From contig CM097888.1 of NCBI GenBank assembly GCA_044892525.1, positions 15,500,001 through 15,564,000 of the forward strand: DNA of 64,000 bases. The letters are read 5' to 3'. Each line of letters starts with the position of its first letter. The stretch's first letter is position 1. Position numbers and translations under genes: made by a program. The notes beneath the pieces were generated by a model that made no database searches, was not told the origin of the DNA, and saw only the letters and a list, made by a program, of their open reading frames with translations. Shown in pieces: positions 18,652 to 51,143 of the stretch. The stretch is from Schmidtea polychroa. Lineage: Eukaryota.

Positions 18652-18684
<33 letters not shown>

Positions 18685-32000: not shown

Positions 32001-32110
32001 TATTGAAAAAGTACAAAGTACTTGTGTGTTAGAAAAGAATATAAATCGATTAATTGGAATATAGCTGTGGTAACTAAAAGATGAGAGCTAGAAATTCTGT
32101 ATAGCGTTTA

Positions 32111-33006
32111 AGTAGAGAGAAGTGTGCTCCATGACTCATCGTTTTTTGTCATTTTTTTGCACTACCCCCCCCCGATGACTCAGTGCAAAACAAAGACATA
32201 TGACTCATCGATGACTCATCCATTGCAACCGTGGTAACTGGATCAAGGTCATATGACTCACCCATAGCAACCATGGTAACTAGATCAAGGTCGCATGACT
32301 CATCCATAGCAACGGTGGTCCCCATGGCAACTAGGCCAAGGTCATTCTATTTTTAGCAACAAGGTCACATGACGTCATCGATGACTCATCAAGGTCATTC
32401 TATTTTTAGTAAATAGGTCAAGGTCATTCTATTTTTAGTAACAAGGTCACATGACTCATCATTTTTAAACAAAGACGATGACTCATCATTAAAGTACATA
32501 TGATTCATCACCGTTGATCCTGCCCGATGACTCATCATTTTTAAACAAAGAAGATGACTCATCAAGGTCATTCTATTTTTATTAACAAGGTCATATGACT
32601 CGTCATTTTTGGAACAAAGCCAACTGACTCATTATTAAAGTATGTATGACTCATCATTTTTTAAACAAAGACATTTAATCAAATATTTAAACAATGACAT
32701 GTAAACAAATATTTAAATAAATACATTTAAACAAATATTTAAACAAAGACATTTAATCAAATATTTAAACAAAGACATTTAATCAAATATTTAAGTACAT
32801 TTAAACAAAGACATATAGACAAAGACTCATCGATGACTCATAGTTTAGATAGGGGGTTTCTTTTTTTTTGCATACTCCCCCCCCCCTTGTATGACTCATC
32901 GATGACTTTTTTGAACAAAGACCAATCATTTATTTTTAAAACAAAGACTCATCACACGACTCTAATTTTTAGAACAGACTTCTTTTTTGGAAAACCAAAA
33001 TTTATT
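32111..33006 (+). repeat. Left TIR of Polinton (at least ~900 bp, runs into N gap)
   Basis: Reverse complement of 47541-48338; internal tandem subrepeats (ATGACTCATC, AAGGTCATTCTATTTTTAG, ATTTAAACAAAGAC). Confidence 0.93.
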
Positions 33007-33218
33007 NNNNNNNNNNNNNNNNNNNNNNNNNNNNNNNNNNNNNNNNNNNNNNNNNNNNNNNNNNNNNNNNNNNNNNNNNNNNNNNNNNNNNNNNNNNNNN
33101 NNNNNNNNNNNNNNNNNNNNNNNNNNNNNNNNNNNATAATAATAATTAACTTAATAATATTTATGCCAATAATAATAATAATATATCAGACAAAAGATAA
33201 TTTAAATCAATACATTTA

Positions 33219-33719
33219 TTAAACAATGAAATAATTTAAAATTAACAATGGCCATTTAAATATTGATGTACTCATATTTGCTGCCATCTTGTTTGAAATT
33301 GGTAACGTTGAATTGGTTTTCAAATTTTCTATCGATTCTTTTATTGTTCGAATTTCGAATATTATTAAATCAATCTTTCTTAACAAATGATCATGTTTCT
33401 TATCAATAATTTTCATATTCTTTTTATTTTCAACAATTGAGTTATTGAAAACCTCAATATGATCAATCAATTTAAATTTTATATTTTGTATATATTCAAA
33501 AGATAGGTCATAGCTGTTTTCTAAATTCTCCAATCTTTGGGATATTCTTTTTCCTGGATGCTTTGCCCATTTTGGTTTGTCAAGAATATAGAAAATATCC
33601 ATCAACTTGGCGGTATTTGGACAAATACATATTGATTTATTAAAAGGCTCCACCGTTATTGTTGTATTGTGTGAGCACACATTCCTTATAATAATTAGCA
33701 ATAGAAATATAGTTTTCAT
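33219..33719 (-). CDS. Polinton accessory protein: signal peptide, N-glycosylation sequons, coiled coil, hydrophobic C-terminus
   Basis: 166 aa: MKTIFLLLIIIRNVCS leader, sequons NTT, NKS, NNS, NST, NMS; heptad-like central region; tail IFKWPLLILNYFIV. Confidence 0.7.
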   Translation of the reverse strand: MKTIFLLLIIIRNVCSHNTTITVEPFNKSICICPNTAKLMDIFYILDKPKWAKHPGKRISQRLENLENSYDLSFEYIQNIKFKLIDHIEVFNNSIVENKKNMKIIDKKHDHLLRKIDLIIFEIRTIKESIENLKTNSTLPISNKMAANMSTSIFKWPLLILNYFIV

Positions 33720-33761
33720 GTTGTATCAAATCTATTATGTTTTACATTTATAGTCTATCAA

Positions 33762-33801
33762 CCAATCAGAATCATATTACACACACACAGTAGTATAAAT
33801 A
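33762..33801 (+). promoter_or_regulatory. CCAAT box and TATA box upstream of the Bcl-2-like gene
   Basis: AACCAATCAGA at 33760-33770 and TATAAATA at 33794-33801, ATG at 33831. A minus-strand TATAAAT at ~33746-33752 could serve the divergent gene. Confidence 0.55.
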
Positions 33802-33830
33802 AGACAGTATATTAAAAATTATTGTAAAAA

Positions 33831-34348
33831 ATGTCTAAATTTATTGAAAACGTCCTAAATGGACTAGTCACAGCGAATATAGTCGACAGCCTCAATTTCC
33901 TGGTCAATCGGACCGAACAAATTATTGAAGGCAACCATATCGACTACCAGAGCATGCTTGATATGGATTGTCTTGAATCAAAGAAGAATTATTTTAACAA
34001 TATATTTCAATGTCTCTGCGATGAAGACATGCAATGGACAAGAATTATTGTAGGGTTCACCTACATGAAGATAATCATTGCGAAAAGCCAACATGACTCA
34101 GAACATTATTATCAGTGGTCTTTAGAAGTAAATTTATTATTATTATTTTTATTATTATTATTTTTTAGATAATCAAATCCAAGTTTAGTCCATGGATAGA
34201 AGATAATGGCGGATGGGATACACTCAATCAACTCGCCCGCAATGCTAAAGAAACTGATGAAATCAAAAGAAAAATGAAAAACTATATTAAACTCACAACA
34301 GGAGTTGTTTTATTGTATATGTTATTTAAATATTTAAATAAATATTAA
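33831..34348 (+). CDS. Bcl-2 family protein (viral Bcl-2-like), 2 exons, 158 aa
   Basis: Exons 33831-34127 and 34169-34348 with a 41-nt GT-AG intron. BH1-like MQWTRIIVGFTY, BH2 PWIEDNGGWD, C-terminal membrane anchor LTTGVVLLYMLFKYL. Confidence 0.85.
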
Positions 34349-34390
34349 TTTTTGTTATTTTTCTTATGTATAAAAAACAAATTTTAAAAT

Positions 34391-34819
34391 TTAACATTTA
34401 TTAACACATTCACAATAGTCATCTCCACATTTCATAATATTATCAACTACATGATCTATACAATCGTTAGGTTGTTCTTGATTGTTTTCTCCATCAATTT
34501 CTTGGATGTTTTCTCCATCAATTTCTTGGATGTTTTCACTAATTTCTTGGGTGTTTTCACTAATTTCTTGGGTGTTTTCTCCATCATTTTCTCCATCAAT
34601 TTCTACATCAGTTTCTTGACTCACTTCACTTTCATCAAATCCTGAATCTTGACTTTCAACTATCCAGCCTATATTTAATGCATTTGCAACAGATAATATA
34701 TCCTCAACATTTACACCAGCTATTTCTGCCAATTTTTCCAACAAAAAGTTGATTACAATTTCTAAATAATAAATAATTCGGTAAGTTATTAATCAAAATT
34801 AACCTTTTTCTGTAGTCAT
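34391..34819 (-). CDS. Polinton accessory acidic repeat protein, 2 exons
   Basis: Exon 34819-34804 (MTTEK), 42-nt GT-AG intron, exon 34761-34391 in frame. Repeats of QEI(S/D)(G)EN and a Cys-rich tail CGDDYCECVNKC. Confidence 0.65.
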
Positions 34820-34971
34820 TTTTATTAACACTTTTAAACTATAATGTAAGTTTGTTTATAGAATGTCTTTGTTAAATTTGCATTACTGTTGCATTAATAT
34901 TAATAAAATAAATAAGATTAAATACATTAAATACATTTATTAAAATACATTATATACATTTATTAAATACA

Positions 34972-35379
34972 TTAAAATAGTTGTGAAAGCCTAGCAGACA
35001 TAATTTTCCAAATTGGAGAATACACATCATTATTATCGACTTTATATCCTTGGATTGCAATTGTTATATACCAATTTTCGTTTTCTTTGAAACTGATTTC
35101 ATCAAAGGCATCATAAAATTTTGCATATCGGTTGTTGAACCATGCATTTTGATTACATGATAGATTTGAATTCAACCGTTTGAAAACTTCATCTATGGTT
35201 TTAACATCTACCATTGAAAGCGTGCCGGATAAGAATTGAAATTGAGTTGGAATTAACTTGACCGGTGCAACCAATTTCATATTGATTTCTTCTTTTAAAA
35301 AATACATTTTGTAGTTGTGGAACATTTGAACAGGCTGAACAAGTTCATCTTTCGGTTTTTCAGTGCATTTCTTGACCAT
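34972..35379 (-). CDS. Polinton accessory protein, possible OB-fold ssDNA-binding protein
   Basis: 135-aa intact ORF with its own TATAAAA (35414-35420) and CCAAT (35442). Beta-rich C-terminus YITIAIQGYKVDNNDVYSPIWKI; function is inference only. Confidence 0.65.
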   Translation of the reverse strand: MVKKCTEKPKDELVQPVQMFHNYKMYFLKEEINMKLVAPVKLIPTQFQFLSGTLSMVDVKTIDEVFKRLNSNLSCNQNAWFNNRYAKFYDAFDEISFKENENWYITIAIQGYKVDNNDVYSPIWKIMSARLSQLF

Positions 35380-35675
35380 CGTGAATTATGATTAAAATGA
35401 AATGGTACAGGGTTTTTATACCTTCAAAATAAATGGAACAACCAATCAGATTAAAGTTTAAATTACATCAATGTTGCACATGCTTTGCATTTGTATTGCA
35501 CATGTCTTTGTTTAAATTGCATCAATGTTGCACATGGTTTGCATTAATGTGTCTTTGTTTAAATTGCATTAATGTTGCACATGTATGATTATTATTATTA
35601 TTATTTTTGGTCATCAATATATAAAAAAAAAAAACAAAATACATAAAAAATATTTATTAATTTAAATCAACAATC

Positions 35676-35873
35676 CTAGAATAAGTTTCTAAGTGTTTTT
35701 ACTAAATTCCATTCTACATATCGCTGATAACGACCAACTGCATCCAATGATACATGGATATTCCATTTCTTTCTGCATTCTGTCGATCTACTCATTGGAA
35801 TTGATTTAATATATCGAACATCCAGATTCTTGTATACCAAATCTGGTATAATCTCTGGATCCCTGTCCTTCAT
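35676..35873 (-). CDS. Small hypothetical Polinton ORF, possibly disrupted
   Basis: 65-aa ORF between two accessory genes on the same strand. An upstream 41-nt intron-like stretch (35920-35960) does not give a clean in-frame model. Confidence 0.35.
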   Translation of the reverse strand: MKDRDPEIIPDLVYKNLDVRYIKSIPMSRSTECRKKWNIHVSLDAVGRYQRYVEWNLVKTLRNLF

Positions 35874-36057
35874 TCAATTGAGGATAGAAATACTTGAGGC
35901 AATCATTTGGAATATTCATCTATAAAATATATAAAAAATATATATAAATTAAAAATTTACCGTAATTATCGATCTCAGACATTGATTTTGCCGCGCTAGT
36001 ATTAATGACATCTAAACAGTTAATATTATTATTATTAACCAATTAGAAATTAACCAA

Positions 36058-36495
36058 TTAGAAATCGACCAATGAATTTAACTCATTCCGAACATTGTTA
36101 ACAAATTCCCTATAGTCTAAATTTCTCAACCCAAGCATGACAACCTTTCCACTTGAAAACACATTGACACATATAGGGTTATATTTTAATAGTCTTAATG
36201 CCGGAAACAATTCCGGTTCAAACATACAATCACATTTTCTCGATATTTTGTATAAATTGATAGTATGTCCCATATCCATAGTAACGGTAATTGATTGAAT
36301 TTTAATATTATTGATTCGATATTGTAATTTATTAATATCCAATGGTTCCTTACATCCCATAATTCTGCATTTGCCAGTCTTGAAAAATATTATCGGATAT
36401 TTCCCGCTTCTATCGACAATTTGCTGTGGTTTTCCTGGTGGGAACCTCATTTTTGAAACATCAAAATTTCCTCGATAATTTATATTTGCAAGCAT
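36058..36495 (-). CDS. TATA-binding protein (TBP)-like protein encoded by the Polinton
   Basis: 145 aa, two half-repeats: IIFFKTGKCRIMGCK (cf. LIFxSGKMVCTGAK) and FEPELFPAL...VNVFSSGKVVMLG (cf. YEPELFPGL...LLIFVSGKVVLTG). Confidence 0.85.
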   Translation of the reverse strand: MLANINYRGNFDVSKMRFPPGKPQQIVDRSGKYPIIFFKTGKCRIMGCKEPLDINKLQYRINNIKIQSITVTMDMGHTINLYKISRKCDCMFEPELFPALRLLKYNPICVNVFSSGKVVMLGLRNLDYREFVNNVRNELNSLVDF

Positions 36496-36603
36496 AATTA
36501 AATCATTTATGAAATTTTACTCTTTATATACAACTTTAGCAAGAGTTCATTAAAATCATCTAATATAAACAATAACTAGATATTTTAAAATTAAAAATAA
36601 AAA

Positions 36604-37227
36604 ATGCAATTAAGAAATGATGCAGTATACCAAATCGTTGGCCCGAGTGGTAGCGGGAAAACATTGTTTGTTTGTAAATTATTACAATCAAAATTATTCA
36701 AGTCAAAATTTAATAAAATTTATTGGCATAGGGGAGCTGATGATGAAAGCGGAATGACACAAGATCAGTTTTGTAAAATCAAAATGACAATCATAAAAGG
36801 GTTCGATAAAAACTGGTCATCTAGATTACGACAGGGTGATGTGATTATTATTGATGATTTATATCAAGAAGCAAATAAAGAAAAGGATTTTAATAATTTG
36901 TTTACAAAAATTAGTAGACATAAAGGTGTCACTGTAATTTTTATCACTCAAAATCTTTTTCATCAAGGTGGATCTCACCGAACTCGTAATTTGAATGTTC
37001 AATATTTAGTTGTTTTCAAAAATCCGAGAGATGCTACAGTGATTGACTTTCTTGCAAGGCAAGCATATCCAAATAATCGAAATTTCTTAATGAATGCATT
37101 TGTCGATGCAACAAAATCCCCACATGGATATATTTTTCTAGATTTTACACAACAGTGTCCTGATGAATTACGAGTAAGAACAGATATATTTAACAAGGAA
37201 GGAGCTATAGTATATAAACAAAGATAA
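36604..37227 (+). CDS. Genome packaging ATPase (A32/FtsK-like)
   Basis: Walker A GPSGSGKT, Walker B IIIDD, RHKGVTVIFITQN and N..YLVVFKNPRD motifs. Confidence 0.95.
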   Translation: MQLRNDAVYQIVGPSGSGKTLFVCKLLQSKLFKSKFNKIYWHRGADDESGMTQDQFCKIKMTIIKGFDKNWSSRLRQGDVIIIDDLYQEANKEKDFNNLFTKISRHKGVTVIFITQNLFHQGGSHRTRNLNVQYLVVFKNPRDATVIDFLARQAYPNNRNFLMNAFVDATKSPHGYIFLDFTQQCPDELRVRTDIFNKEGAIVYKQR

Positions 37228-37248
37228 AACCAAAATAAATTATCAATC

Positions 37249-37740
37249 ATGTTACTAAAAACTCGTGTAAAGACAAAACCTACAAGAAGGAAACCTGCAA
37301 AAGTGGTTAAGATTCCACCAAAAACTAGTTTCACACCATCGAAAAAATTGCTTATTGATAATATTCCGCCGAGTAATCGTATTCCACCGAGTAATCATAT
37401 TCCGCCGAGTAATTCTCATCGTAGTTTTCCGTTTTTCATTGCATTACTTAAGGCTCCCAGTATGAGAAGAATGAATATTTTACAGTCTTTTCCAAATTAT
37501 GTTATTGATGATTTACTTGCTATTTTAATTAAAGTTGTTAAAGGTAAATTCCGTATAAGTACATCAAATAAAAAGATTTTGAACAGACACAAGAAACCAC
37601 TATTATCATTAGTAAATACTAAAAATAAAAAACGTATGCGTAAAATCATATATAAACAACAAGGAGGCTTCATTGCAGCCTTGATACCAATAGCATTATC
37701 TTTATTGGGAGGGGCAGGTTTATTAAAATCATCATCATAA
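37249..37740 (+). CDS. Basic virion/core precursor protein with C-terminal QxGG cleavage site and amphipathic tail
   Basis: Lys/Arg-rich 163 aa ending KQQGGFIAALIPIALSLLGGAGLL, a pattern typical of small Polinton virion proteins. Confidence 0.75.
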   Translation: MLLKTRVKTKPTRRKPAKVVKIPPKTSFTPSKKLLIDNIPPSNRIPPSNHIPPSNSHRSFPFFIALLKAPSMRRMNILQSFPNYVIDDLLAILIKVVKGKFRISTSNKKILNRHKKPLLSLVNTKNKKRMRKIIYKQQGGFIAALIPIALSLLGGAGLLKSSS

Positions 37741-37795
37741 ACAATGGGTCAATCATTACCAAATCTTAATTTGAATTTTAAATCCTCCTGTTGTA

Positions 37796-38183
37796 ATGGA
37801 GAAGATTTGGACGAACCCAGAAGACGAAGCCGGTTTCGGTGGAGTGGCAAAATTAAAGAAAAGAGTTCCGAATTCGAAAAAAGAAACCCAGAAGTGGTTA
37901 TCAAATCAACTAGCGTACAGTTTGAACAAACCAATGCAGAAAAGATTTCCAACAAGAGCGTATAAAACATATGGAATAAATGATTTGTGGCAAATGGATT
38001 TGATGGAGATGATACCCTATTCAAAAATTAACAAGGGGTATAAATATATTTTAACGTGTATTAATGTATACAGCAGGTTTGCACGAGCAATACCAGTCAA
38101 GTCAAAATCTGCAGATGAAATGTCCAAAGCTATTAATATTTTATTTAAAAATGGACATCCTAATAATTTACAAACGGATTTAG

Positions 38184-38221
<38 letters not shown>

Positions 38222-38865
38222 ATATTATTATTATTTTAGGTAAAGAATTCTACAACAGTAAAGTTAAGCAAATCCTCGATAAACTGAAAATAAATCACTA
38301 CTCGGTACATTCTCAATACAAAGCTGCTCATGTTGAAAGATTTAACAGAACCTTGAGAGATAGATTAAAGAAATTGTTCGTGTATCAAGGTAATAAAAAA
38401 TGGGTATTGGTTTTACCAAAAATTATAACCAGTTATAATAATTCATCACATCGAGGACTTAATGGATTGAGACCGGTTGATATCACATCAAAAACATTCT
38501 ATTCTAAAAAATCTGAAAAAATTACAAAACCGAAATATAAAGTTGGTGACCATGTTAGAATTAGTAAAATTAGTGCATCACCATTTATTAAAAATTTCGA
38601 TACAAATTGGAGTGATGAAGTCTTTGTAATTTCGAAAATAAATACTAGCCAGAACCCTGTGATGTATGTCATCAGAGATTCTGAAAATAACATTGTACAA
38701 GGGAAATTTTATGAGCAAGAATTACAAGTCATTCCTCCCCCAAAAGTATTTAGAATTCAAAAAATATTGAAAACTAAAATGGTGGGTAAGGATAAACAAT
38801 ACTATGTCAAATGGCATGGATATAAAAACCCATCATGGATATCGTCTCGAGACCTCGTAAAATGA
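37796..38865 (+). CDS. Retroviral-type (rve) integrase with C-terminal chromo-like domain, 2 exons
   Basis: Exons 37796-38183 and 38240-38865 with a 56-nt GT-AG (ATT)n intron. Splicing restores DLWQMDL...LQTDLGKEFY...VERFNRTL (D-D-E); C-terminus YYVKWHGY...SWI. Confidence 0.95.
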
Positions 38866-39881
38866 ATTTTTACATTATTTTGCCAAGTAATAGTTGTCCG
38901 AATATACATCCAGAAAACACTGCCAGTAAATTTATGGTCAATCTCCAAAATCCGATTTATTTAAATGGTAATTGGGAAGTTGCTCTCCTTGACTTTACAT
39001 TTGTGTACAATCTCTTTCCAATTTATAGTAAAGCTAAAATTGAATATAAAAAGAAAGAGACGCAAAGAAATATCTCTTTTGTCATTGATAATGTAGAAGA
39101 TCGAATTGATATTGGTCCTTCCGATTCAATTGTCAAAATGTATATTGATCGTCAATATTTAATAGTTGAATGTAAATATCATCCCTTTACTATAAAATTT
39201 GATAGTTTAGCAATGGCAAAACGATTGGAATTAACAAGTCAGAGTAATAGAAATCATACTAATATATTCCAAGTACTACGGCCGAGATTTACCAAAGTAG
39301 CAGCGCGATATGAGACAATTTCAATGAAAGTTGAGTTTGAGGGTGAAACTGAAAATACATATACGTTTAATGAGAATTTATACATTTCTAAATTGGAGGA
39401 ATTACAATCATATTTAATTCAGAATTGTGGATCAATATTTAAATCATTGGAATTAGTAGACAATACTTTGTTCAAATTCAGTTTGAATACTGATATTACT
39501 GAAATTACTTTTGATAAAAATCTAATAAAAACATTAGGATTATCAAAAGGAACATATATTCAAGATGGAAAATTAAATGTAGGTATGAATAAACCGAAAA
39601 TAATTAAACTTCATCATCAAATGTTTCTCTATACTAATATTATTGAACCCATAATTGTTGGTGATTCTTTGGTTCCTCTATTGAAATCTATTTGGGTTGA
39701 GAAACATGAACAAGATGATGTTGTACAAATCAATGTAGAAAATCCCATGTATTTGCCTGTTTCAACATCCTGTATAAACAATATAGAAATAAATATAAGA
39801 GATGATTCTGGTCAATTAATCGAATTTGCAAAAGATTCAAAAACTCATTTGACACTACATTTTCGTAAAGTAGATGGCTAA
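38862..39881 (+). CDS. Minor capsid protein (penton, single jelly-roll)
   Basis: MNFYIILPSNS...F.VNL.NPIYLNGNWEVALLDF and MFLYTNIIEPIIVGDSLVPLLK...YLPV...INNIEINIRDDSG...LHFRK. Confidence 0.9.
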   Translation: MNFYIILPSNSCPNIHPENTASKFMVNLQNPIYLNGNWEVALLDFTFVYNLFPIYSKAKIEYKKKETQRNISFVIDNVEDRIDIGPSDSIVKMYIDRQYLIVECKYHPFTIKFDSLAMAKRLELTSQSNRNHTNIFQVLRPRFTKVAARYETISMKVEFEGETENTYTFNENLYISKLEELQSYLIQNCGSIFKSLELVDNTLFKFSLNTDITEITFDKNLIKTLGLSKGTYIQDGKLNVGMNKPKIIKLHHQMFLYTNIIEPIIVGDSLVPLLKSIWVEKHEQDDVVQINVENPMYLPVSTSCINNIEINIRDDSGQLIEFAKDSKTHLTLHFRKVDG

Positions 39882-40260
39882 TTCTGATATTATTAGTATG
39901 TATAGTGGTAGCCAAAGTGGTGGCGAATTACCATATTTTGTTGGTAAACAGTACGGAAGTGGGTGGTTGAGAACAATTGGTAGATTTGCGTTACCAATTC
40001 TTAAACGTATTGGTAATTTCGGTATGAAAACTGCAAAAGATGTAATTATGAATGACAAGAAAATATTACCATCGTTGAAATCAAATGCAATTGCTGAAAT
40101 AAGTAAAGTAATACCTGGTATGTTTAAAACTGAACCAGCACTGGTACCAGTAAAACGTAAATTTGAAAGTGAAATTAAAACAAGTATGGGAACTAAACGC
40201 AAGAGAGGGAGGCATATAAACAAACGAATGAAAGGACACGGAACCATATTTGAAGAATGA
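39874..40260 (+). CDS. Small conserved Polinton core/virion protein
   Basis: QSGG and QYGSGWLRTIGRFALPILKRIG motif; basic C-terminus; lies between the penton and major capsid genes. Confidence 0.8.
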   Translation: MANSDIISMYSGSQSGGELPYFVGKQYGSGWLRTIGRFALPILKRIGNFGMKTAKDVIMNDKKILPSLKSNAIAEISKVIPGMFKTEPALVPVKRKFESEIKTSMGTKRKRGRHINKRMKGHGTIFEE

Positions 40261-41483
40261 TTTGCGGTAAATCTGAATTATGTCTATTTGATCGACCATC
40301 GCCTCAGGCGGTTATCGAATATGGAGCATTTGAAGATGTATTTCCAATGAATTCTATTACCGATAGTAGAAATGATGTGGAATTTTACATTAATGGTTCT
40401 CAAACAGAATATTTAGATTTGAACGATACTTTGTTGTATGTTCAAATAAAAGTTGTAGATAAAGACAATAAAGCATTAGCTGCAGATGATACAACTGAAC
40501 CTAATAATTTCTTGTTTCATACTCTCTTTAAAGATGTTATTCTTGGATTTAATAACATTAAAATTGAGGGTGGAAACAATACATATGCTCACAAGGCAAT
40601 TATCGAAACTATTTTAAATTATAATAATGATACTAAAGATACTTGTCTAACTCCAATGGGATATGGTGTATCTGATGATCGAAAAAAGTGGATTAAAGGC
40701 TCAAAAACTTTCAACATGTGTTCATCTCTACAATTGGATTTTATGGATCAACCCAAATATTTACTACCAGGTGTTAATGTACATATGAGATTGAAAAGAT
40801 CTGATTCTGCATTGTCATTATCAACTGGAGTTGCAGGTGCAGCACCTAAATTAATATTACTCGATGCCAAATTAATGGTTCGAAGAGTTCGATGTGAATC
40901 GTCTGTATTAGCGGGACATCAAATTGGATTAAATACCAAACATGCAATTTATCCGATAAAAACAAAAGAAATTGTATCATTTGCAATTGCTAAAGGAGCA
41001 TCATCTTTTTACAAGGAGCAAATATTTGGAGATCGAAGAATGCCTAATTTTATCCTTGTAACTTTTCAAAGTGAAGCTCAATATAACGGATCTTATGATA
41101 CATCTTCATCAAAATTCAAACACTTTAGTGTAACTTCTCTTTCATTATCGAAAAATACTGATTATCGAGAAACTTATACTCAAGATTTTGATAATGATAA
41201 TTATTGTACTTCATATATGCAAAGTCTTGTCAGAAATTTAGGATATTTGGATAAAAATCTTAATTGTGGTATAAGTCTGGAAGAATTCAAAACATTCTAT
41301 CCATTTTTCACATTTGTTCTGGCTCCAGATTTTGATTTAAATCAAAGTCAATTACCTCAAAGTGGCAATTTGAGATTGGATATTAAGTTCGGTAAAGCAA
41401 CTACTGAACCAGTCCATGTAATAATCTATGGGGTTTTTGAAAATGAAATCCAAATTACTGCAAATCGAACTGTACTAGTATAA
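40257..41483 (+). CDS. Major capsid protein (double jelly-roll)
   Basis: 408 aa; SELCLFD.P..Q, EF.I.GS..EYLDLNDTLLYV, NNFLFHTLFKDV, Y..KA.IET.LNY, LQLDFMDQPKYLLPGV, LRLDIKF. Confidence 0.93.
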   Translation: MICGKSELCLFDRPSPQAVIEYGAFEDVFPMNSITDSRNDVEFYINGSQTEYLDLNDTLLYVQIKVVDKDNKALAADDTTEPNNFLFHTLFKDVILGFNNIKIEGGNNTYAHKAIIETILNYNNDTKDTCLTPMGYGVSDDRKKWIKGSKTFNMCSSLQLDFMDQPKYLLPGVNVHMRLKRSDSALSLSTGVAGAAPKLILLDAKLMVRRVRCESSVLAGHQIGLNTKHAIYPIKTKEIVSFAIAKGASSFYKEQIFGDRRMPNFILVTFQSEAQYNGSYDTSSSKFKHFSVTSLSLSKNTDYRETYTQDFDNDNYCTSYMQSLVRNLGYLDKNLNCGISLEEFKTFYPFFTFVLAPDFDLNQSQLPQSGNLRLDIKFGKATTEPVHVIIYGVFENEIQITANRTVLV

Positions 41484-41513
41484 ATGAAGAAATTTAAAAG
41501 ATTAAAGTTTTTT

Positions 41514-41898
41514 ATGGAGTAAGATTTTTATTTTATAATTTAACTTATTGATTAGTTCTATTCAGGTGTCTCGAATTGGTACTCAATTATTGGGAAACGA
41601 ATTTCTTGGAGTTTATCCACTGGATAAAATTCCATATTTGAGAAATAATCAAGCCATAATCGTCAATACTCATACATCTAGTTTAGGAGGTGAACATTGG
41701 ATTGCTGTATATGTGAAACCAAACCGAGTATATGCATTCGATCCCTTTGGATATTATTACCCAAATTTATTAATTAGTAAATTGCAAACTATTGGTAAAC
41801 CTATTGTATATAATCGAACTCGGTATCAAAATCCATTTTCAATTACTTGTGGCCAACATTGCCTTGCATGGTTGTTATCAATGTATAATTTTGTTTAA
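41514..41898 (+). CDS. Adenain-like cysteine protease, 2 exons
   Basis: Catalytic H (GEHWIA), D (FDPFG) and Q/C (YQ...CGQHC). A 37-nt GT-AG intron (41519-41555) joins ATG GA to T TCT ATT CAG, giving an MDSIQV start. Confidence 0.9.
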
Positions 41899-41920
41899 TA
41901 AATGTATTAAATGTCACAAG

Positions 41921-41971
<51 letters not shown>

Positions 41972-41989
41972 ATTATTAATTAATTTTAT

Positions 41990-42200
41990 TATTCATATCA
42001 ACAAATTTCATGCACTTGTATTGCATGTCTTTATGTGAGTAACAAAGACATTATTTGTTACTATGTGAGTCATCGATGACTCATTCTTTTTTAAACAAAG
42101 ACATGAATATGTGTGCGTTAATTTTTTCTATCCTATCTGCATTTTGATTGGATAAACGTTACATATATAATCTATGTTTTTGTAATTCTTTTTCATTTAT
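41990..42200 (+). promoter_or_regulatory. Putative promoter/enhancer of the polymerase unit
   Basis: TGAGTCA and TGACTCA, AACAAAGACAT twice, ATTGG at ~42147 and TATATAA at ~42164, upstream of ATG 42206; same motif set as the TIRs. Confidence 0.5.
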
Positions 42201-42205
42201 TCAAA

Positions 42206-43060
42206 ATGCAAAATATTTCAAATGAAATCAAGGAAATGATTCGAAGAAATCGTATGGGTAATTTTTTTTTTAATGTTTTTATTTTTATTTATATTTTAGT
42301 CTACATTAATGAAAATAATGTTTCGGGAACTTATAATTTTTCAGCAAGTAATGGAATTGAAAATAATGTTTCCGGAAATTATGGTAAATTTAATTTTTAA
42401 ATTATTATTATTATTATGATTTTTTAGTAAATAATGCTGTACACAATCTCGCGTGCAAGAAACCTAAATGTAGGTTTTTTAAAATTTTAAAATTAATATG
42501 CTTTAAATTATTATGATTTTTAAATTAATTTACTTTAAATTATTATGATTTTTTAAATTAATATGAAGTCAATTTTGTTATAAAGAAAATGTATGAAGTC
42601 AATTTTGTTATGAAACAAATAATGAAATTAATTTTTATAAAGAAAATGAATATGTTTTTATTTAATTAAAATAAATTTAAATATAATACACTTATGAGCA
42701 AGGGAGGGACAGAATATTTTGTCGTATAAACTCAGATTATATAGTAATAATAAATAATAATAATTTTGATAATAATAATAATAATAATTTTGATAATAAT
42801 ACTATTTTACTTATTTTATAGGTTATAAATATCCAACCTTTTGTAACAGTGCTACACATCATGACTGTGACGATATTATGGAAAAATATTATGGTCATGA
42901 ATATAAAAGTGTAACATACTTGTTATGTCCTACATGCCAAACTCTTGAAACATCGACATATACCGAATTTTATGATAAACATCGTAATCATTTAACCCAA
43001 TATATGCCTTCTAAAAAATCAGTTTTCAAAATTGCGTATCAAAAATATATCATCAACTAA
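42206..43060 (+). CDS. Spliced zinc-finger ORF upstream of pPolB, probably its N-terminal exons
   Basis: Exons 42206-42257, 42300-42383, 42428-42469 and 42822 onward, all GT-AG with compatible phases; encodes CPTC...HRNH. Confidence 0.6.
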
Positions 43061-46000
43061 TAATAGGAACACCGAAAACTTACAAAATCGACAATTAATG
43101 GAAACATCAACAAAAATCAATAATAGGACCACCAACAAAAGTATGATTAATGCCATGTTGATACAAAATCGACAATTAATGGAAACAGTCAATAGATTAA
43201 TAGGAATAATAGGTAATAAAAGACATTTAGAAATTCCCACAGAAATTCCCACAAAAAAGATGAAAGAAATAATAGTCATTAGTGAAGACGACGATGATGT
43301 TGTAAGTAATGAAGTTGTAAATAGTGAAGTTGTAAATAGTGAAGTTATAAATAGTGAAGTTATAAATAGTGAATTTGAAAATAGTGAATTTGAAAATAGT
43401 GAATTTGAAAATAGTGATGTTGTACCCCAAGTAGGTAGTGGTATAGTCGACGTAGTTTCCGACCTGAATAGTTCCCATGTAATAGTTAAGTTGGATATAT
43501 CTTCCTTGAATTGTAAAATTCTTTCTGTTCCTGACGTTCTCATAGAAAAATTGTTAGAAATTGTAAATAAAATGAAATCAGTAAAAATTCAATTTTGTAT
43601 TAAAGTAGAGTTTGAGAAAAATGATGAATTTCAGTCTTTCATAATCTCAAACTCTGCTCGTGTATGGAGCGACACATTTATTGATGATGGTATCTCTCTT
43701 TTAAATGAAAAAATTAGTAAAATAAATGAAAAGGGAAGTAATTGGACCATTAACAAAATAGAATACATTAGTTTTATTGTGACAAAATATTCAAAGATTA
43801 GTAGGTTGAGTGGTCGTAAATATATTGAAACCCCGAAAACATTAATCAGGAAAAAATGTATAATAAATGTAAATAATGATGACGAATTTTGTTTCCTTTA
43901 CTCGGTTTTGGCTCTTATAAAATATGATAGTACTCCTGATGAATTGCGTCATCTGCCTAGTTCTTATAACCTTTCAGATCTGATATATAACCCGGCAGAT
44001 ATGCCAATGAAATTATCAAATATCTCAAAATTTGAACGACAAAACCCAGGTTATTCAATTAATGTTTTAAGTTATGACGAAACTGGGTTAATTTCGGGTC
44101 CCATCATGAAACATCCTTTTATAGATATAATTTATCGCAGTAAAATAGTAGGAGGTACTTGTCTAAATTTGTTATTATTACAGAATCGGAAAACCTACCA
44201 TTACGTCGCTATATCTGATTTAAACATCTTTCTTAATTGCCGAAATTCATCAATAAGTTCTGTTCGTATTTACTGTAAGTGGTGTCCTAGATGTCTGAAT
44301 GGATTCAGATTTGAAGATAGTTTTATTAAACATCAAGGTCTTTGTGAACGAAACCAATTAGGAACCACAATGTACACACTACCAAAAGATCCATTATTAG
44401 AATTCACAGACTATAGTAAAATGATTACTCCTCCTTTTGTTATTTATGCCGATTTTGAGGCAATCCTTCCTAAAGATTCTAAATATTATCAGAAACATTT
44501 ACCCATTTCGGCTGGACTTTTATGTATAAATAATAATACAGGCGCAAAATTTTATAAATCATTCATAGGCCTTTCTTGTATAGACGAATTTTTAAAAGAA
44601 ATTAATGATATCGCTAAAAAGATTGTAACTCCCTATTATTATAAAAATAAAAATAAGAAAATGATATTCATAGAAAATGACCAAATTAATTTTAATAACA
44701 GCACAAACTGTCATTTGTGTAAAAAATTATTAGTTAAACCAGTCAGGGATCATGATCACTTTACCGGTCAATTCCTTGGTGCTGCTTGCAACACTTGTAA
44801 TCTTTCCAGGAAAATATACCACACACTACCTGTAGTCTTTCATAATATGAGAGGATATGATCTCCATCATATCCTCAAATTTGGCTTGGCTAAATATAAG
44901 TCCTGGCATATTTCTTGTATACCGGTGACAAGTGAAAATTTTTTATCTCTTTTTGTGCATATTGATTCCCTGACTGTGAAATTTATAGATTCTTGTCAGT
45001 TTGTAAATTCGTCTTTGAAAAATGCTGTCTCAACCCTTAACACATTACCTTTGACAGAATCTGAGTTTAGAGGGTCTATTATTAAGAGTAAAGGGATTTT
45101 CCCTTATGATGTAGCAACTTCCCTTGATGTATTAATTTCTACATTAGAATTGCCCCCTAAATGGAGTGATGTATCCGATGATGAATACAATAAAGCAAAA
45201 CTAATCTGGCAAGAGACATCATGTAATTCCCTTTTGGATTATATGATGGTCTATTTGAAATTAAATGTATTTCTGTTGGCTGACTTTTTTCAGCAATTCC
45301 GAGCTAAGAGTATTGCTCATAATAGGCTTGAGCCTTTGAATTTCCTAGGTATCCCCAGTCTTTCTTGGAGTTCTGCTTTGTTAAGTCTTGATAAACCGAT
45401 TGAGCTTCTCACCGACATGGAAATGTATAATTTCTTTGAAGGTGGGATTAGAGGTGGGATAACGTTTGTGAATAAACATTTTGTTAGTAGTGATGAAAAT
45501 ACAGAGTTGTTGTATATTGACATCAACAACCTGTATGGATGGGCTTTATCACAAAAGCTTCCCGACGGTGGTTTTGAATGGGTGACTGATGACATTGCTT
45601 TAGAGAGATTATTAATTGAGTGCACAACGGAAGATTTAAATCAACTTGATTATGGCTATACTATAGAAGTAGATTTAAAAATACCGAAATCTATCCATGA
45701 CAAACTAGATGATTTTCCGGTAGCTCCTGGTAAGATGTGCCCACCTTTTTCTAAAGTGGAGAAGTTGCTACTTACACACGATCCGAAAACACACTATGTT
45801 TTACATTGGCGACTTCTCCAAATCTTTCTTCAGTTAGGTGTTGTTGTTACCAAGGTACATAGGGCTATTAGGTATACACAAAGCACTGTCTTCAAGAAAT
45901 ACATAGATACCAACACACAACTACGAGCCGCATCCATAACACCGCTCGATAAAGACTATTACAAGTTGCTCAATAACAGTTTGTATGGAAAAACTGTTGA

Positions 46001-46784
46001 GAACTTGAAAAAACGTATTAACTTACGACTGTGCAATTCCGCACAAAAACTTATCACATATGCCTCAAAACCGGCATTTAAGAAATCTACTAGGATAGAC
46101 GATGATTTGATTTCGGTTTTGCTTATGAAAGAGTCTGTATGTTTAGATAGGCCCAGCTACATCGGGCAAACTGTACTTGATCTTTCTAAACTGAGAATGT
46201 ATCAGTTGCAGTATAATGAATTGCAAAAATATCGCGATGAGTTTAACTGTGAAATTAATATAGTAGCTAGTGATACAGACTCTTTCTTTTTGGAAATTAA
46301 AAATTGTAGTCTTGACATTCTCTTACCTGCCATGATTCGTGACTCCTTGCTTGACACATCTAATTATAACCCACAACATCCTTTATATAGTAGAGCACTA
46401 GATTCCGTCATTGGAAAATTCAAAGACGAGAATAAAGGATTGAGATATAAGGAGTGGGTGTTTCTTCGTCCCAAGTGTTACAGCTTATTAGGTGATAAAG
46501 AAACTCTTAAAGCAAAATCTGTCACGTTGAAAGATACTGGCTTAGATCACAATTCCTATCGTGATTGTTATTTTAACAATAAGGTTTACTCTGTGCCACA
46601 ATTCCGCATTGCATCCAAAAATCATCAATTGTACAGCATAAAAAACATTAAGAAGGCGCTGACAAATAGAGATGACAAGCGGTATTGGAAATCGAAAAAC
46701 AAGAGTTTGGCATATGGGCATTATCGGATAGGGGACACTTTTATATATGATGATGACGACAATTTTGACGGAGAAAATTACTGA
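43032..46784 (+). CDS. Protein-primed family B DNA polymerase with endonuclease VII-like insert
   Basis: 1250-aa ORF. Exonuclease YADFE, FHNMRGYD, KGIFPY; CHLC...RDHDHFTGQFLGAACNTCN; polymerase motifs YIDINNLYG, KLLNNSLYGK, SDTDS. Confidence 0.97.
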   Translation: MRIKNISSTNNRNTENLQNRQLMETSTKINNRTTNKSMINAMLIQNRQLMETVNRLIGIIGNKRHLEIPTEIPTKKMKEIIVISEDDDDVVSNEVVNSEVVNSEVINSEVINSEFENSEFENSEFENSDVVPQVGSGIVDVVSDLNSSHVIVKLDISSLNCKILSVPDVLIEKLLEIVNKMKSVKIQFCIKVEFEKNDEFQSFIISNSARVWSDTFIDDGISLLNEKISKINEKGSNWTINKIEYISFIVTKYSKISRLSGRKYIETPKTLIRKKCIINVNNDDEFCFLYSVLALIKYDSTPDELRHLPSSYNLSDLIYNPADMPMKLSNISKFERQNPGYSINVLSYDETGLISGPIMKHPFIDIIYRSKIVGGTCLNLLLLQNRKTYHYVAISDLNIFLNCRNSSISSVRIYCKWCPRCLNGFRFEDSFIKHQGLCERNQLGTTMYTLPKDPLLEFTDYSKMITPPFVIYADFEAILPKDSKYYQKHLPISAGLLCINNNTGAKFYKSFIGLSCIDEFLKEINDIAKKIVTPYYYKNKNKKMIFIENDQINFNNSTNCHLCKKLLVKPVRDHDHFTGQFLGAACNTCNLSRKIYHTLPVVFHNMRGYDLHHILKFGLAKYKSWHISCIPVTSENFLSLFVHIDSLTVKFIDSCQFVNSSLKNAVSTLNTLPLTESEFRGSIIKSKGIFPYDVATSLDVLISTLELPPKWSDVSDDEYNKAKLIWQETSCNSLLDYMMVYLKLNVFLLADFFQQFRAKSIAHNRLEPLNFLGIPSLSWSSALLSLDKPIELLTDMEMYNFFEGGIRGGITFVNKHFVSSDENTELLYIDINNLYGWALSQKLPDGGFEWVTDDIALERLLIECTTEDLNQLDYGYTIEVDLKIPKSIHDKLDDFPVAPGKMCPPFSKVEKLLLTHDPKTHYVLHWRLLQIFLQLGVVVTKVHRAIRYTQSTVFKKYIDTNTQLRAASITPLDKDYYKLLNNSLYGKTVENLKKRINLRLCNSAQKLITYASKPAFKKSTRIDDDLISVLLMKESVCLDRPSYIGQTVLDLSKLRMYQLQYNELQKYRDEFNCEINIVASDTDSFFLEIKNCSLDILLPAMIRDSLLDTSNYNPQHPLYSRALDSVIGKFKDENKGLRYKEWVFLRPKCYSLLGDKETLKAKSVTLKDTGLDHNSYRDCYFNNKVYSVPQFRIASKNHQLYSIKNIKKALTNRDDKRYWKSKNKSLAYGHYRIGDTFIYDDDDNFDGENY
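43304..43420 (+). repeat. 15-bp coding tandem repeat (AATAGTGAAGTTGTA; NSEVV/NSEFE) in pPolB N-terminal linker
   Basis: About 7-8 copies visible. Confidence 0.85.
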
Positions 46785-47540
46785 TCATTTCGGTAATAAT
46801 AATAATTATTATTATAATTATTATTTTTTATTATTAATAGTTGTCAATGAAGCCAAGATTGTAAGAAACAATCAATGCAACAGACATTTGTAAAAATGAC
46901 AATGTAAAATTGTAAATTTGTAATTTAAATATATTTTGTTGATTNNNNNNNNNNNNNNNNNNNNNNNNNNNNNNNNNNNNNNNNNNNNNNNNNNNNNNNN
47001 NNNNNNNNNNNNNNNNNNNNNNNNNNNNNNNNNNNNNNNNNNNNNNNNNNNNNNNNNNNNNNNNNNNNNNNNNNNNNNNNNNNNNNNNNNNNNNNNTGCA
47101 CTTGTATTGCATGTCTTTATGTGAGTAGAAATTACTCAGTTAGTAACAATGACTCATCGATGAGTCATATTCAGAGAACAAAGCATCGATAATATCCAAT
47201 TCTGATTGGTTAGATGTTATCGATACTTTGTACATCTTTTCAAATGAGGTAATTATTATTTTTTTATGATTTAAATTTTTTTTTATAATGAAATTTTTTT
47301 ATGATTAATTTTTATTTTTTTTTTTATGAAACCAGTTTTTATGAAAACAAATTATATGATTTATGAAATAAATTTTATGAAAACAAACTTTTTNNNNNNN
47401 NNNNNNNNNNNNNNNNNNNNNNNNNNNNNNNNNNNNNNNNNNNNNNNNNNNNNNNNNNNNNNNNNNNNNNNNNNNNNNNNNNNNNNNNNNNNNNNNNNNN
47501 NNNNNNNNNNNNNNNNNNNNNNNNNNNNNNNNNNNNNNNN

Positions 47541-48338
47541 CAATAAATTTTGGTTTACCAAAAAAGAAGTCTTCTAAAAATTAGAGTCGTGTGATGAGTC
47601 TTTCTTTTAAAAATAAATGATTGGTCTTTATTCAAAAAAGTCATCGATGAGTCATACAAGGGGGGGGGGAGTATGCAAAAAAAAAGAAACCCCCTATCTA
47701 AACTATGAGTCATCGATGAGTCTTTGTCTATATGTCTTTGTTTAAATGTACTTAAATATTTGATTAAATGTCTTTGTTTAAATATTTGTTTAAATGTATT
47801 TATTTAAATATTTGTTTAAATGTATTTATTTAAATTTTTGTTTAAATGTATTTATTTAAATATTTGTTTAAATGTATTTATTTAAATATTTGTTTAAATG
47901 TATTTATTTAAATATTAAATATGTCTTTGTTTAAAAAATGATGAGTCATACATACTTTAATAATGAGTCAGTTGGCTTTGTTCCAAAAATGATGAGTCAT
48001 ATGACCTTGTTACTAAAAAGAGAATGACCTTGACCTAGTTACTAAAAATAGAATGACCTTGATGAGTCATCGATGACGTCACGTGACATTGTTACTAAAA
48101 ATAGAATGACCTTGACCTAGTTACTAAAAATAGAATGACCTTGACCTAGTTACTAAAAATAGAATGACCTTGACCTAGTTACCACGGTTGCTATGGATGA
48201 GTCATATAACCTTGACCCAGTTACCGCTGTTGCTATGGATGAGTCATATGTCTTTGTTTTGCGCTGAGTCATCGGGGGGGGGGGTAGTGCAAAAAAATGA
48301 CAAAAAACGATGAGTCATGGAGCACACTTCTCTCTACT
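47541..48338 (-). repeat. Right TIR of Polinton
   Basis: Reverse complement of the left TIR, with different subrepeat copy numbers. Confidence 0.93.
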
Positions 48339-51143
48339 CGTTTACGTGGAAATAAAATAAATATTAAAAACACAGCTGTGATGGAAACGAAAGAATGTGA
48401 CTATAAATTGGAAAAACAGATCAATCGAAAAACTGGTAGAATTCAGAACGATATTTGAACCAGAGAAATTGTGTCAATTGAAGAAGCCAATCAATACCAT
48501 TCTTAGGTAAAAAGTTTCATTAGTGAAGGATAAATTATTATCCTTTTGTTGTGGTCAATTTAGTATTCCCTGGGTGCCCCAAAATCATTAACCAACTTAC
48601 TTATCTTTTCTCTTATGGTTTATTCAGCGATCGTTGTGCTACACAGGAACCAACAATTTCTTACAGGCTGCGACAAACGGCAAGGATAAATCCGTTTCTT
48701 GTATTTGCTTTTACATCACATTGTATAAATTATTTTGTAAAATTATAAATAAAAATTATTTAAAAACAGAAGTTGGTTTTTTCATTAAAATTATTAATTA
48801 CACGCAACCACACGAAATATTCATTATTGACCTTATTAACATTAATATTATATTTATTGGAGTTAATTGTGTTAAGATTAGTGACACCCATGGGCGCTTT
48901 TACTAATAGGCAAACTTAGGCAACTGCCTAGAGGCGCCAACCGAAAAAGAGCGCTTGCAATATAATTTTCTTTGTAATTTTTTTTCCATAATTTTTATAT
49001 ATTTATTGATAATTATAATTAAATTATGTAATTAAACAAGATAATACTATTAATATACATTAATATTATTTATAAGTAGTACTTTGTTTTTGTTTTACTG
49101 ACGGTTTTTACTGATGGGTTTTCAAATTAGTTGTATGTAAAATAAAACGATTATAGAAGTTAAAATTTTTAAAAATTTGAATTCAAGTTGAATTTGTTAT
49201 AACTTTATAGTACAGAATATTTTATATTGCTATTTGGTGATTTATATAAAATTTTCTCTAAGTTATAATTTTATGGTAAGCGAATTTTACATATTTTAAA
49301 TATTTTTTTACAGAGGTATTGTTTTAAAATTTAGGTAAAATAAATTAAATGGAAGGGCGTAAAAAATAGTGGTTATCAAAGTAGAAAATTAGCAAAAGAA
49401 AAACAAAGAAGTTCGATAAAATCATTGAAAAAACAACTAAAACTAGATGGATTTTTAATTTAAAAACCCGGAGCCGTAGCTCAAGAACAGGTAAGCAATT
49501 GTGTTTCAATTGTGGAAATACATAACGAAACTACCACAGATGTCTCATATCAATTCAAACATTTAATGATTTAGAAAAAAATAAACACCCTGACACAAAT
49601 AATTTAGAATAAAACACTGACACATCTGCTAATTGTTCAAGAATGGTAAATCTGTCCGAAAATCACACAAACATTCAAATAAACCTTGATCCTGTTACAT
49701 GGAAACGGTGTGATGACTCTACTATTACATATTTATCTAATAAAAATAATTCCATTAGTCAAAACATCCCTACAGATTTCTCGTCAACAAAGAAGGTTTA
49801 TACCGACAAAAGAGCAAGATATTTAAATGAATGTGTTTTTTTAGAAGAAAATTGCAAAATGGTGAATTTATACGTCAAAATTATCTAGTATATTCTCAAA
49901 GTAACAAATCAGTTTATTGTGTTCCTTGTCGATTGTTAGGTGGTGGAACAGCACTGGCAACAACAGGTTATTCTGATTGGAAAATGTAACAGAATGCTTA
50001 TCTCAGCACGAATAATAAAGCAGCTATTATTAGGAGACTTTGCGTCAAATGTGAATGAACTATTAAATTCAGAAACTCTAAAGGGAAAAAAATTATTAGA
50101 TTCAGGTACTCAAACGGGTTGTGTGTATTATACGAAAACTTGCTAGCCAAACATTGCCTTTAAGAGGAAAAACTCAAATAATTGGAAACATTAATAATGG
50201 CAATTTTTTAATGGCCGTGGAATTAGTTGCCGAATTTGACCCGTTTGTAGCCGCGCATATTGAAAAATATGGAAATCCAGGAAAAGGAGGTACATCATAT
50301 TTATCGTCAAAAGTTTTCGAAGAAATTGTGATATTGATGGCCGAAAAAGTAAAACAACAAATATTTAAGGAATTATGAGAAGCAAAATATTATTCAATTA
50401 GTGTTGACTACATTCCTGACATATCACATACTGATCAAGTTGCTTTTATTATTCGATATGTAAAAAATGAAGTCCCCGAGGAACATTTTTTGAGGTTTTT
50501 GGAAAATGTAGCATAAATATGGAGGGGAAAGAAATTATACAATTTTTAAATGAAAACAAAATTGAAATAAAAATTTGAGAGGGCAATCATATGATAACGC
50601 TAGACACATGCCTGGAATTTATTCAGGACTTCAAGCACGAATTAAGAAAATCAATGAATTAGCTCATTTTATACCTTGTACAGCACACTCAATGAACTTG
50701 GTTGGAAAATTTGCGGCAGATTGTTGCCGAGATGCAGCATCCTTTTACAATTTTTTTACAAGAATTATTTAATTTCTTTTCTTCTTCAACAAGTCATTGG
50801 TTAGTGTTAACTACTACTTTAAAAGGGCGAACCATAAAATTTCTTTCCGAAACAAAATGGTCTTGTCCAACGTTCCCTCTAAGCTGGGCAAACGGGCGGC
50901 CGCCCAGTTAAAAATTGACATTTGCCCACTCAGCATTTCTATCCGCCCACTAGAAATTATTGCAAACAATAATTTTTTTTATTTGTCACCATTTTCATTG
51001 CGTAAACGACCCCAGTTGAAAATTTCGTATAGATTTCCACACTAAATTTTTTTATTATTTACATATTACAAAAATAAAATGATAAAAAAAATTTTTTTTT
51101 GAAATTTTGCCCAATTTTTTTAAAATTTAATATACTTGCACAC

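Follow-up and report, generated by a model that had tools for sequence, protein, structure and literature searches.

A recently amplified Polinton family of the planarian Schmidtea polychroa with a minimal TBP and a candidate late promoter word

In 64,000 nucleotides of the planarian Schmidtea polychroa (assembly GCA_044892525.1, contig CM097888.1, positions 15,500,001 to 15,564,000; this whole stretch is called the window below), a Polinton was found at positions 32111-48338. We read it as a full-length, slightly damaged copy of a recently amplified Polinton family, whose TBP-like protein of about 145 residues (mini-TBP) probably serves as a late transcription factor that reads a private promoter word, (C/T/G)ATAAAC, and recruits host TFIIB and RNA polymerase II (Pol II). 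The probability of this reading was put at about 0.58. It addresses two open questions, namely whether animal Polintons still form virions and how their genes are controlled without an RNA polymerase of their own.

Mini-TBP and the promoter word

The open reading frame (ORF) of mini-TBP matched PF00352 (E 2.9e-16) and its structure was predicted with a pLDDT of 96. The whole chain superimposed as a two-lobed saddle on yeast and human TBP (Z 13.6, rmsd 2.4-2.5, 145-146 residues aligned). Residues 1-62 did not contain any helix of four or more residues, two N-lobe spans had each lost 13 residues compared with three host paralogs, and the N-lobe helices H1 and H2 with the basic patch of a canonical TBP were absent. 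Three phenylalanines were conserved. The stirrup positions E284 and E286, numbered by motif match to PMC7221094, both carried an acidic residue in 103 of 104 homologs; the count was 129 of 138 in a second set, made up of representatives retrieved without word seeding, which may hold a few cellular TBPs. In the accessible part of that paper, E284 and E286 are described as the contact to TFIIB and the patch on H2 as the site for TFIIA, TAF1, Mot1 and Brf (PMC7221094).

A scan of 16 ORFs of the element for families gave no match to TFIIB. When mini-TBP was modelled with the core of a near-relative TFIIB (P0124, 92% identical to the host exon), a score of 0.40 was obtained compared to 0.00 for the best control, with at least 90% of contacts agreeing between runs and a partner pLDDT of at least 83. 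Of 78 solved pairs, 51 passed the mark applied to such complexes, as did 2 of 108 mismatched ones, and scores of 0.60 or less comprised just 5 of the 78 solved pairs and all 4 passing mismatches. A like complex is solved, so the prediction probably reflects likeness to solved structures and is weakly suggestive of the contact. In this host, 13 near-identical intronless TFIIB-like frames of 301-310 aa were listed in clusters (L202:4572-5486, L203:4682-5596). A 304-aa multicopy TFIIB was considered as a viral TFIIB and rejected, as no other long Polinton-like gene frames were seen at the two loci read. The host also carries several divergent TBP paralogs (L173, L175, L190) and two Brf1-like genes (L196, L197), and thus an expanded basal transcription set.

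Database searches yielded 169 homologs of mini-TBP, most of them at 39-63% identity, and most of the best 120 were 130-180 aa long; its profile retrieved 60 clusters at E <1e-30. A core Polinton gene was found in 39 of 80 metagenomic loci and in 19 of the 21 that were at least 4 kb long. These TBP loci showed at least three gene orders and capsid identities down to 26%, with an SSB (single-stranded DNA-binding protein) homolog in 21 of 81 and an ATPase near TBP in 27 of 81. Among viral contigs a single distant TBP was found. Since mini-TBP is widespread in Polinton loci with several gene orders, it is an old gene of this lineage. A recent capture of the host TBP was ruled out by the alignment identity to three host paralogs (17-25%), the higher identity to most database homologs and a tblastn search in which the canonical locus of host TBP had no match at E 0.01.

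Two classes of promoters were distinguished at the TBP-bearing loci. Between -60 and -16, (C/T/G)ATAAAC was present at 22 of 22 ATPase starts (proteins 38%-87% identical to that of the window), 5 of 5 core-protein, 10 of 12 major capsid and 12 of 17 minor capsid starts, against a background of 2.9% of 10,732 ATGs. In the same interval it was found at none of 23 TBP, 3 Bcl-2 or 2 glycoprotein starts, at 3 of 10 SSB starts, and at 5 of 21 integrase and 4 of 11 Z2 starts. Ahead of the capsid gene, the word falls inside the upstream coding frame. A canonical TATA box was located 28-45 nt upstream of 7 of 12 starts compared to 24 of 589 background ATGs, with the interval chosen post hoc and one start misplaced by 9 nt, and CCAAT and TATA elements precede the Bcl-2 gene. 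This division, with the word before ATPase and capsid starts and before no TBP start, suggests a late switch as in herpesviruses. The first-pass annotation had placed TBP, as transcription control, in a host-manipulation block; the promoter words point instead to control of the genes of the element itself. A hint of expression came from runs guessed to be RNA and analyzed with no silent-stretch control: single contigs of run X12 carried poly(A)-like ends at 34355 (past Bcl-2) and 34923 (past SSB), and contigs of X12 and X19 began at 38241, the acceptor of the integrase intron.

A young family and its damaged copy

By every feature testable here the element is a Polinton. Between its termini, AGTAGAGAG.../...CTCTCTACT, the outermost 63 nt are a perfect inverted match embedded in imperfect terminal inverted repeats (TIRs) of about 1 kb. 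CGTTTA is present on each side, so that AG...CT ends and a 6-bp target site duplication (TSD), the hallmarks of Polintons/Mavericks, were both observed. The two termini and the perfect TSD that had been annotated initially were thereby confirmed.

The genome comprises 781 Mb, includes four large contigs and is AT-rich. Searches of it with the capsid protein gave at least 102 matches; all 102 that were scored (of 5005 candidates) were 98-100% identical, 97 of them without stops. In the TBP search, 150 of 4167 candidates were scored, of which 85 were 96-100% identical (subfamily A) and 65 were 92% identical (subfamily B). A Pfam TBP search of the genome returned 140 further rows of non-host type, and nine of nine places sampled among them were Polintons carrying virion-module genes. 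The capsid matches demonstrate a very recent burst of amplification. Repbase holds Polinton families from a planarian, and the present family may already be named there.

For closer comparison, 20 A copies with identical TBP, a sample therefore biased to young copies, and 10 of the 65 B copies were used. Both ends were found in 17 of the 20 A copies, which were 16.3-17.1 kb long apart from one deleted copy of 11.8 kb. Gene order was identical, N stretches were absent, and 16 of the 17 carried a perfect TSD. A chimera across the N stretches of the window, which would have overturned the original annotation, was ruled out since the sister copies continue through these places with the same gene order. 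The median divergence of the sisters from the window copy was 0.17% in the middle block, 0.20% in the polymerase block and 1.0% in the left block; the left block of the window copy is a minority variant. The earlier claim of a recently active Polinton with TBP and Bcl-2 thus holds at the level of the family, by copy number, low divergence and the anatomy of the sisters. Three fetched copies (L007, L011, L053) were mosaics whose arms or capsid modules derive from more than one subfamily. Together with dS values between A and B that vary from 0.2 to 2.9 by gene, this shows that lineages recombine. At L154-L155 a fold-back was observed in which Bcl-2 and partial Polinton genes are mirrored on both arms.

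In three A-versus-B pairs, dN/dS was 0.15 for TBP, 0.13-0.16 for SSB, 0.10-0.11 for capsid and 0.16-0.20 for integrase. It was below 0.5 for all accessory genes tested, with Bcl-2 exon 1 near saturation and the sixth small ORF outside the test. The tested accessory genes are therefore under purifying selection.

The window copy itself had been called virion-competent with all six core genes open after splicing. Frames for ATPase, integrase, both capsid proteins, protease and the protein-primed family B polymerase (pPolB) are indeed present; the intactness of all six did not hold up for this copy. Compared with 17 of 20 sisters, a 2-base indel near 43044 shifts the CxxC exon out of the polymerase frame. 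In 14 of 20 sisters, and also in families C and D, exon and polymerase are fused in a single frame. From the GSNW word through the palm, a single frame of 1228 aa follows the ATG at 43098. Two pPolB changes, at 584 in the Exo II word and 723 in the Exo III word, are private to the window copy (none of 18 scored A sisters); a third, at 525, was shared with 1 of 19 A sisters. The apparent motif changes at position 90 of the integrase and position 1141 of pPolB also occur in 18 A sisters, which ruled them out as private damage, and hypermutation of the window copy was looked for and not seen. Judged by its frames, the copy is probably not competent on its own and would most likely need the polymerase of a sister in trans.

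Among the 20 sisters, all six core frames were open in 6 and every tested frame in 3, a lower bound. When three mosaic or divergent copies were excluded, 114 missense, 34 silent and 8 stop mutations were private to single copies (3.4:1 missense to silent, 3.1:1 expected), and with these copies included 185 missense and 102 silent mutations were counted. Once the three are excluded, the private mutations look neutral.

Gene content of the element

The features of the element are as follows.

32105-32110, no strand: left TSD CGTTTA, 6 bp, from the sequence
32111-33135, no strand: left TIR, about 1 kb, with 15 TGACTCA sites
33219-33719, minus: 166-aa ORF with a signal-peptide-like N-terminus and 5 N-glycosylation sequons; dN/dS 0.39
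33831-34348, plus: Bcl-2-like gene, exons 33831-34127 and 34169-34348, BH2 word WIEDNGGW, hydrophobic tail
34391-34792, minus: acidic repeat-rich ORF, putative start; dN/dS 0.40-0.48
34972-35379, minus: predicted SSB, OB fold of the T7 gp2.5/Enc34/ASFV CP312R type, from the predicted fold
35682-35873, minus: small ORF 3' of TBP, common to Polinton families of this host
36058-36498, minus: mini-TBP, about 145 aa, two lobes, from PF00352 and the predicted fold
36604-37227, plus: packaging ATPase of the A32/FtsK type (PF04665), TATAAAC at 36564
37249-37740, plus: likely basic core-protein-like ORF (a weak lead), TATAAAC at 37213
37744-37965, plus: 73-aa Met-Gly ORF overlapping the integrase start, kept in 11 of 21 loci, CATAAAC at 37736
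37796-38865, plus: rve integrase with chromodomain (PF00665), intron 38184-38239
38835-39881, plus: minor capsid protein, assigned by position and size, GATAAAC at 38791
39874-40260, plus: 128-aa conserved virion-module ORF
40257-41483, plus: major capsid protein, likely double jelly roll (DJR), TATAAAC at 40215, weak profile support
41484-41898, plus: adenain-type cysteine protease, intron 41519-41555
42823-46784, plus: pPolB with CxxC exon, GSNW word, OTU-like Cys/His words, Exo domain with endonuclease VII-like insert and polymerase motifs
47413-48338, no strand: right TIR with 10 TGAGTCA sites
48339-48344, no strand: right TSD CGTTTA, 6 bp

GT-AG introns of 41, 56 and 37 nt interrupt Bcl-2, integrase and protease, respectively, and preserve the frames. 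The TIRs contain 25 TGACTCA sites in total compared to 7 in the 47.8 kb of the window outside the element, and those of subfamily B contain 17-27 each. We take TGACTCA to be an AP-1-type site, presumably linked to wounding. Arrays this dense may render the element responsive to host bZIP factors.

The integrase matched PF00665 and a chromodomain, and its D, D and E words were located, as were the catalytic words of the ATPase (PF04665, E 1.2e-6) and of the protease (PF00770, E 1.4e-7). Exo and Pol words typical of protein-primed family B polymerases were identified in pPolB. In hmmscan its frame gave no match to PF03175, and relatives at 55-58% identity match this family at 113-120 bits. The GSNW word is taken here to be of the terminal protein (TP) type. 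The endonuclease VII-like insert noticed at first was found, with E values of 3.8e-4 for PF02945 (under its cut-off) and 7e-4 to 3e-3 for three PHROG endonuclease VII models. Such an insert, together with the word NNLYG, is tied to the group 1 (Beta) pPolB lineage. As sole lineage marker it did not stand: HNH inserts occur in some group 2 pPolB2 according to the accessible part of PMC10748475, so the insert alone cannot place this pPolB in a lineage.

Both capsid genes were assigned by position, size and conservation, and direct profile support was weak. One of 10 capsid homologs matched Capsid_N (E 0.0079) and one a DJR-like profile (E 0.039), both weakly, and a comparison with PDB sequences gave zero matches. 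The 73-aa Met-Gly ORF is out of frame with the integrase, has homologs of 54-83 aa and is possibly a small myristoylated virion protein.

Bcl-2 exon 1 matched PF00452 weakly (E 0.0045) and exon 2 matched TIGR00865 (E 3.5e-5). Read across the intron, Bcl-2 of sister copies exceeded the Pfam cut-off. BH1 and BH2 motifs and a C-terminal anchor typical of the family were recognized, although the BH1 word deviates from the usual NWGR. The gene would likely keep host cells alive. It is present in subfamilies A and B; the copy in family C is intronless, 23% identical and adjoins SSB and TBP, and family D copies had no Bcl-2 in the stretches read. The protein database held just two close matches. Forks in the Bcl-2 tree were weak, the nearest sequence being L164. 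This locus (L164:4551-5012) harbors an intronless Bcl-2 gene, 39% identical to that of family C, and may be read as donor or relic; its 10 kb were searched for Polinton genes and yielded none. At least seven near-identical Bcl-2 genes of host type are clustered at L142-L148 (G000:C4:89.9-90.8 Mb).

The predicted SSB fold (pLDDT 90) had ASFV CP312R, DUF2815, Enc34 and T7 gp2.5 as its top four matches (Z 6.4-7.5, 101-125 residues aligned, rmsd 2.7-4.0), where Z below 8 may merely reflect a common arrangement. For the 166-aa ORF, annotated initially as a glycoprotein, no clear transmembrane anchor, no Pfam, atlas or Burro-Env match and no relatives beyond the A and B types were found. The rest of the left-arm block (TBP-like, Bcl-2-like, SSB and acidic ORFs, the signal-peptide ORF as such and a sixth small ORF) was seen as described.

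In tblastn searches of the 80 metagenomic loci, most of which are partial contigs, Bcl-2, glycoprotein-like and acidic genes were found in none; they occurred only in families of this host. Likewise, 23 loci held 221 unexplained ORFs, and none of the 147 compared with protein families matched Bcl-2. A general pairing of TBP with Bcl-2 in Polintons was accordingly not seen outside this host. The host-manipulation block originally proposed thus combines genes of two histories: the Bcl-2, glycoprotein-like and acidic genes, found only in families of this host, and TBP, which usually accompanies SSB and is an old, widespread Polinton gene. Other TBP-bearing Polintons (L064, L085, L089, L095, L110-L137) carry genes for a dual-specificity phosphatase, an E2 ubiquitin-conjugating enzyme, and LRR, RING, PLA2-like, KilA-N and C2H2 proteins.

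The host flank in the window contains a PHD-finger exon, exons of a CoA-transferase of family III with an opposite-strand RING-finger ORF between them, and two long transposon-like ORFs (5305-6048, 16365-24528, 21330-22022, 51591-53921); a Pfam scan of the latter two gave zero matches.

Proposed programme, rival explanations and known systems

In the proposed programme, host factors would act on ordinary CCAAT/TATA promoters of an early set (glycoprotein-like gene, Bcl-2, SSB, TBP and probably pPolB), perhaps driven by the AP-1-type arrays of the TIRs. SSB and pPolB would replicate the DNA by protein priming while Bcl-2 would hold off apoptosis. Mini-TBP would then activate ATPase, core, integrase and capsid genes via (C/T/G)ATAAAC, escaping the host N-lobe regulators TFIIA, TAF1 and Mot1, and the integrase would insert new copies with 6-bp duplications. 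A dedicated factor with its own promoter word is a switch open to knock-down, with capsid-module RNA as readout, in a host in which RNA interference works. More tentatively, this widespread lineage might run a two-phase transcription programme smaller than any other known from viruses (a 145-aa TBP, host TFIIB and Pol II, a private ATAAAC word), with a young family of hundreds of copies that bears wound-responsive AP-1 arrays and Bcl-2 and makes real particles in a regenerating flatworm. If true, the Polinton virion, which has never been seen, could be studied in a tractable animal.

Several points weigh against mini-TBP as a late factor in a damaged copy. Between -60 and -16, the word was missing at 16 of the 21 integrase starts and 7 of the 11 Z2 starts, and some starts were guessed. 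Owing to the relatedness of the loci, the motif counts do not represent independent observations, and the G variant and the distance windows were picked after viewing the data. All loci had been selected for TBP; TBP-less Polintons were sought as controls and none were found. It may thus be host TBP that reads the word, as a promoter common to Polintons in general. TATAAAC is one base away from a canonical TATA box. In the protein, the counterpart of the first intercalating phenylalanine of the N-lobe lacks secure identification. Regarding the damage, the window copy might make its polymerase from the downstream ATG, as the frame from TP to palm is continuous.

Deletion of the N-lobe regulatory surface with the TFIIB stirrup kept would equally fit a dominant-negative protein. 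Mini-TBP could thus be a decoy for host shut-off which binds TATA DNA and TFIIB, cannot join TFIID or TFIIA and dampens host genes such as those of defence, while host TBP reads the element's promoters; that its gene is surrounded in this genome by Bcl-2 and other host-directed genes agrees with that. However, a decoy leaves unexplained why distant TBP-bearing Polintons have a non-canonical word fixed ahead of their morphogenesis genes, even where, at the capsid gene, it lies within upstream coding sequence, and in the 80 metagenomic loci TBP accompanies ATPase, SSB or protease, not Bcl-2. We consider such a function quite unlikely. A role in replication or packaging, in which mini-TBP would bind AT-rich terminal or internal DNA together with SSB instead of serving transcription, could account for the SSB and ATPase neighbors in 21 and 27 of 81 loci. 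It is very improbable given the nearly invariant TFIIB-contact glutamates and a conserved word at promoter distance from start codons.

The family may alternatively persist purely as an intracellular transposon of stem or germ cells, with capsid module and mini-TBP as remnants from a viral ancestor of recent date and with particle formation no longer taking place. This would agree with the neutral-looking private mutations, with the 6 of 20 copies that have all six core frames open, and with the silencing of planarian Polintons by piRNAs, where loss of SMEDWI-2 is reported, in the accessible part of PMC8532177, to derepress them. Yet neutral decay after insertion is expected by either route. 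Strong purifying selection on capsid, ATPase and TBP between co-resident young subfamilies, the virion-module genes at nine of nine further TBP places, and the exchange between lineages seen in mosaic copies and gene-wise dS all argue against it, and we regard this explanation as unlikely.

Our preferred reading, a late factor acting through host TFIIB and Pol II, can be set beside known systems, each compared through the accessible part of the source cited. Adintoviruses and Polintons share TIRs, pPolB, rve integrase, FtsK/A32 ATPase, adenain protease, two capsid genes and a length of about 16-18 kb (PMC8502044; PMC6431247). Bcl2 and SSDBP labels occur in some adintovirus maps, and the legend mentions TBP for the non-animal MELD viruses (PMC8502044). 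In the legible maps, Supplementary Figs S1 and S3 excluded, there is no flatworm element and no TBP label for animals, and neither mini-TBP anatomy nor a promoter word is described (PMC8502044). A prior description of the gene set, which would have removed its novelty, thus exists for Bcl-2 and TBP separately, each being named with no accompanying analysis in the accessible part of that paper. Neither Polinton mini-TBP anatomy nor (C/T/G)ATAAAC was described in the literature searched, which did not extend to Repbase, to the founding paper of 2006 or to supplements in slide form.

Burro giant long terminal repeat (LTR) retrotransposons of planarians are likewise mobile elements with a Bcl-2-like domain (PMC6431247). 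There it is part of a retroelement polyprotein, whereas Bcl-2 of the Polinton is free-standing and spliced, and the two are not close. One such Burro-type element, present in many copies, was seen at L160-L161 (G000:C1:210857000-210876999), with a 3053-aa frame for Bcl-2, Env/fusion glycoprotein, PR, RT, RH and IN.

Among viral TBPs, those of giant viruses (NCLDV) share the fold and the loss of the N-lobe regulatory signature (PMC7221094). They differ in being mostly paired with a viral TFIIB and in a diverged stirrup with about 40% conservation at E284 (PMC7221094), whereas mini-TBP keeps both glutamates in an element without a TFIIB match. An analogy in the way of working is ORF24/BcRF1 of beta- and gammaherpesviruses, which also lack an RNA polymerase of their own and use a TBP-like factor and a variant TATA to transcribe late structural genes with host Pol II (PMC7498053). 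These mimics are large, act with five viral partner proteins and grab the C-terminal domain of Pol II via an extra N-terminal domain (PMC7498053). Mini-TBP has about 145 aa, no extra domain and the TFIIB stirrup kept. It would be a natural minimal TBP, in which the surfaces for DNA and TFIIB are kept and the regulatory helices of the lobe are dropped.

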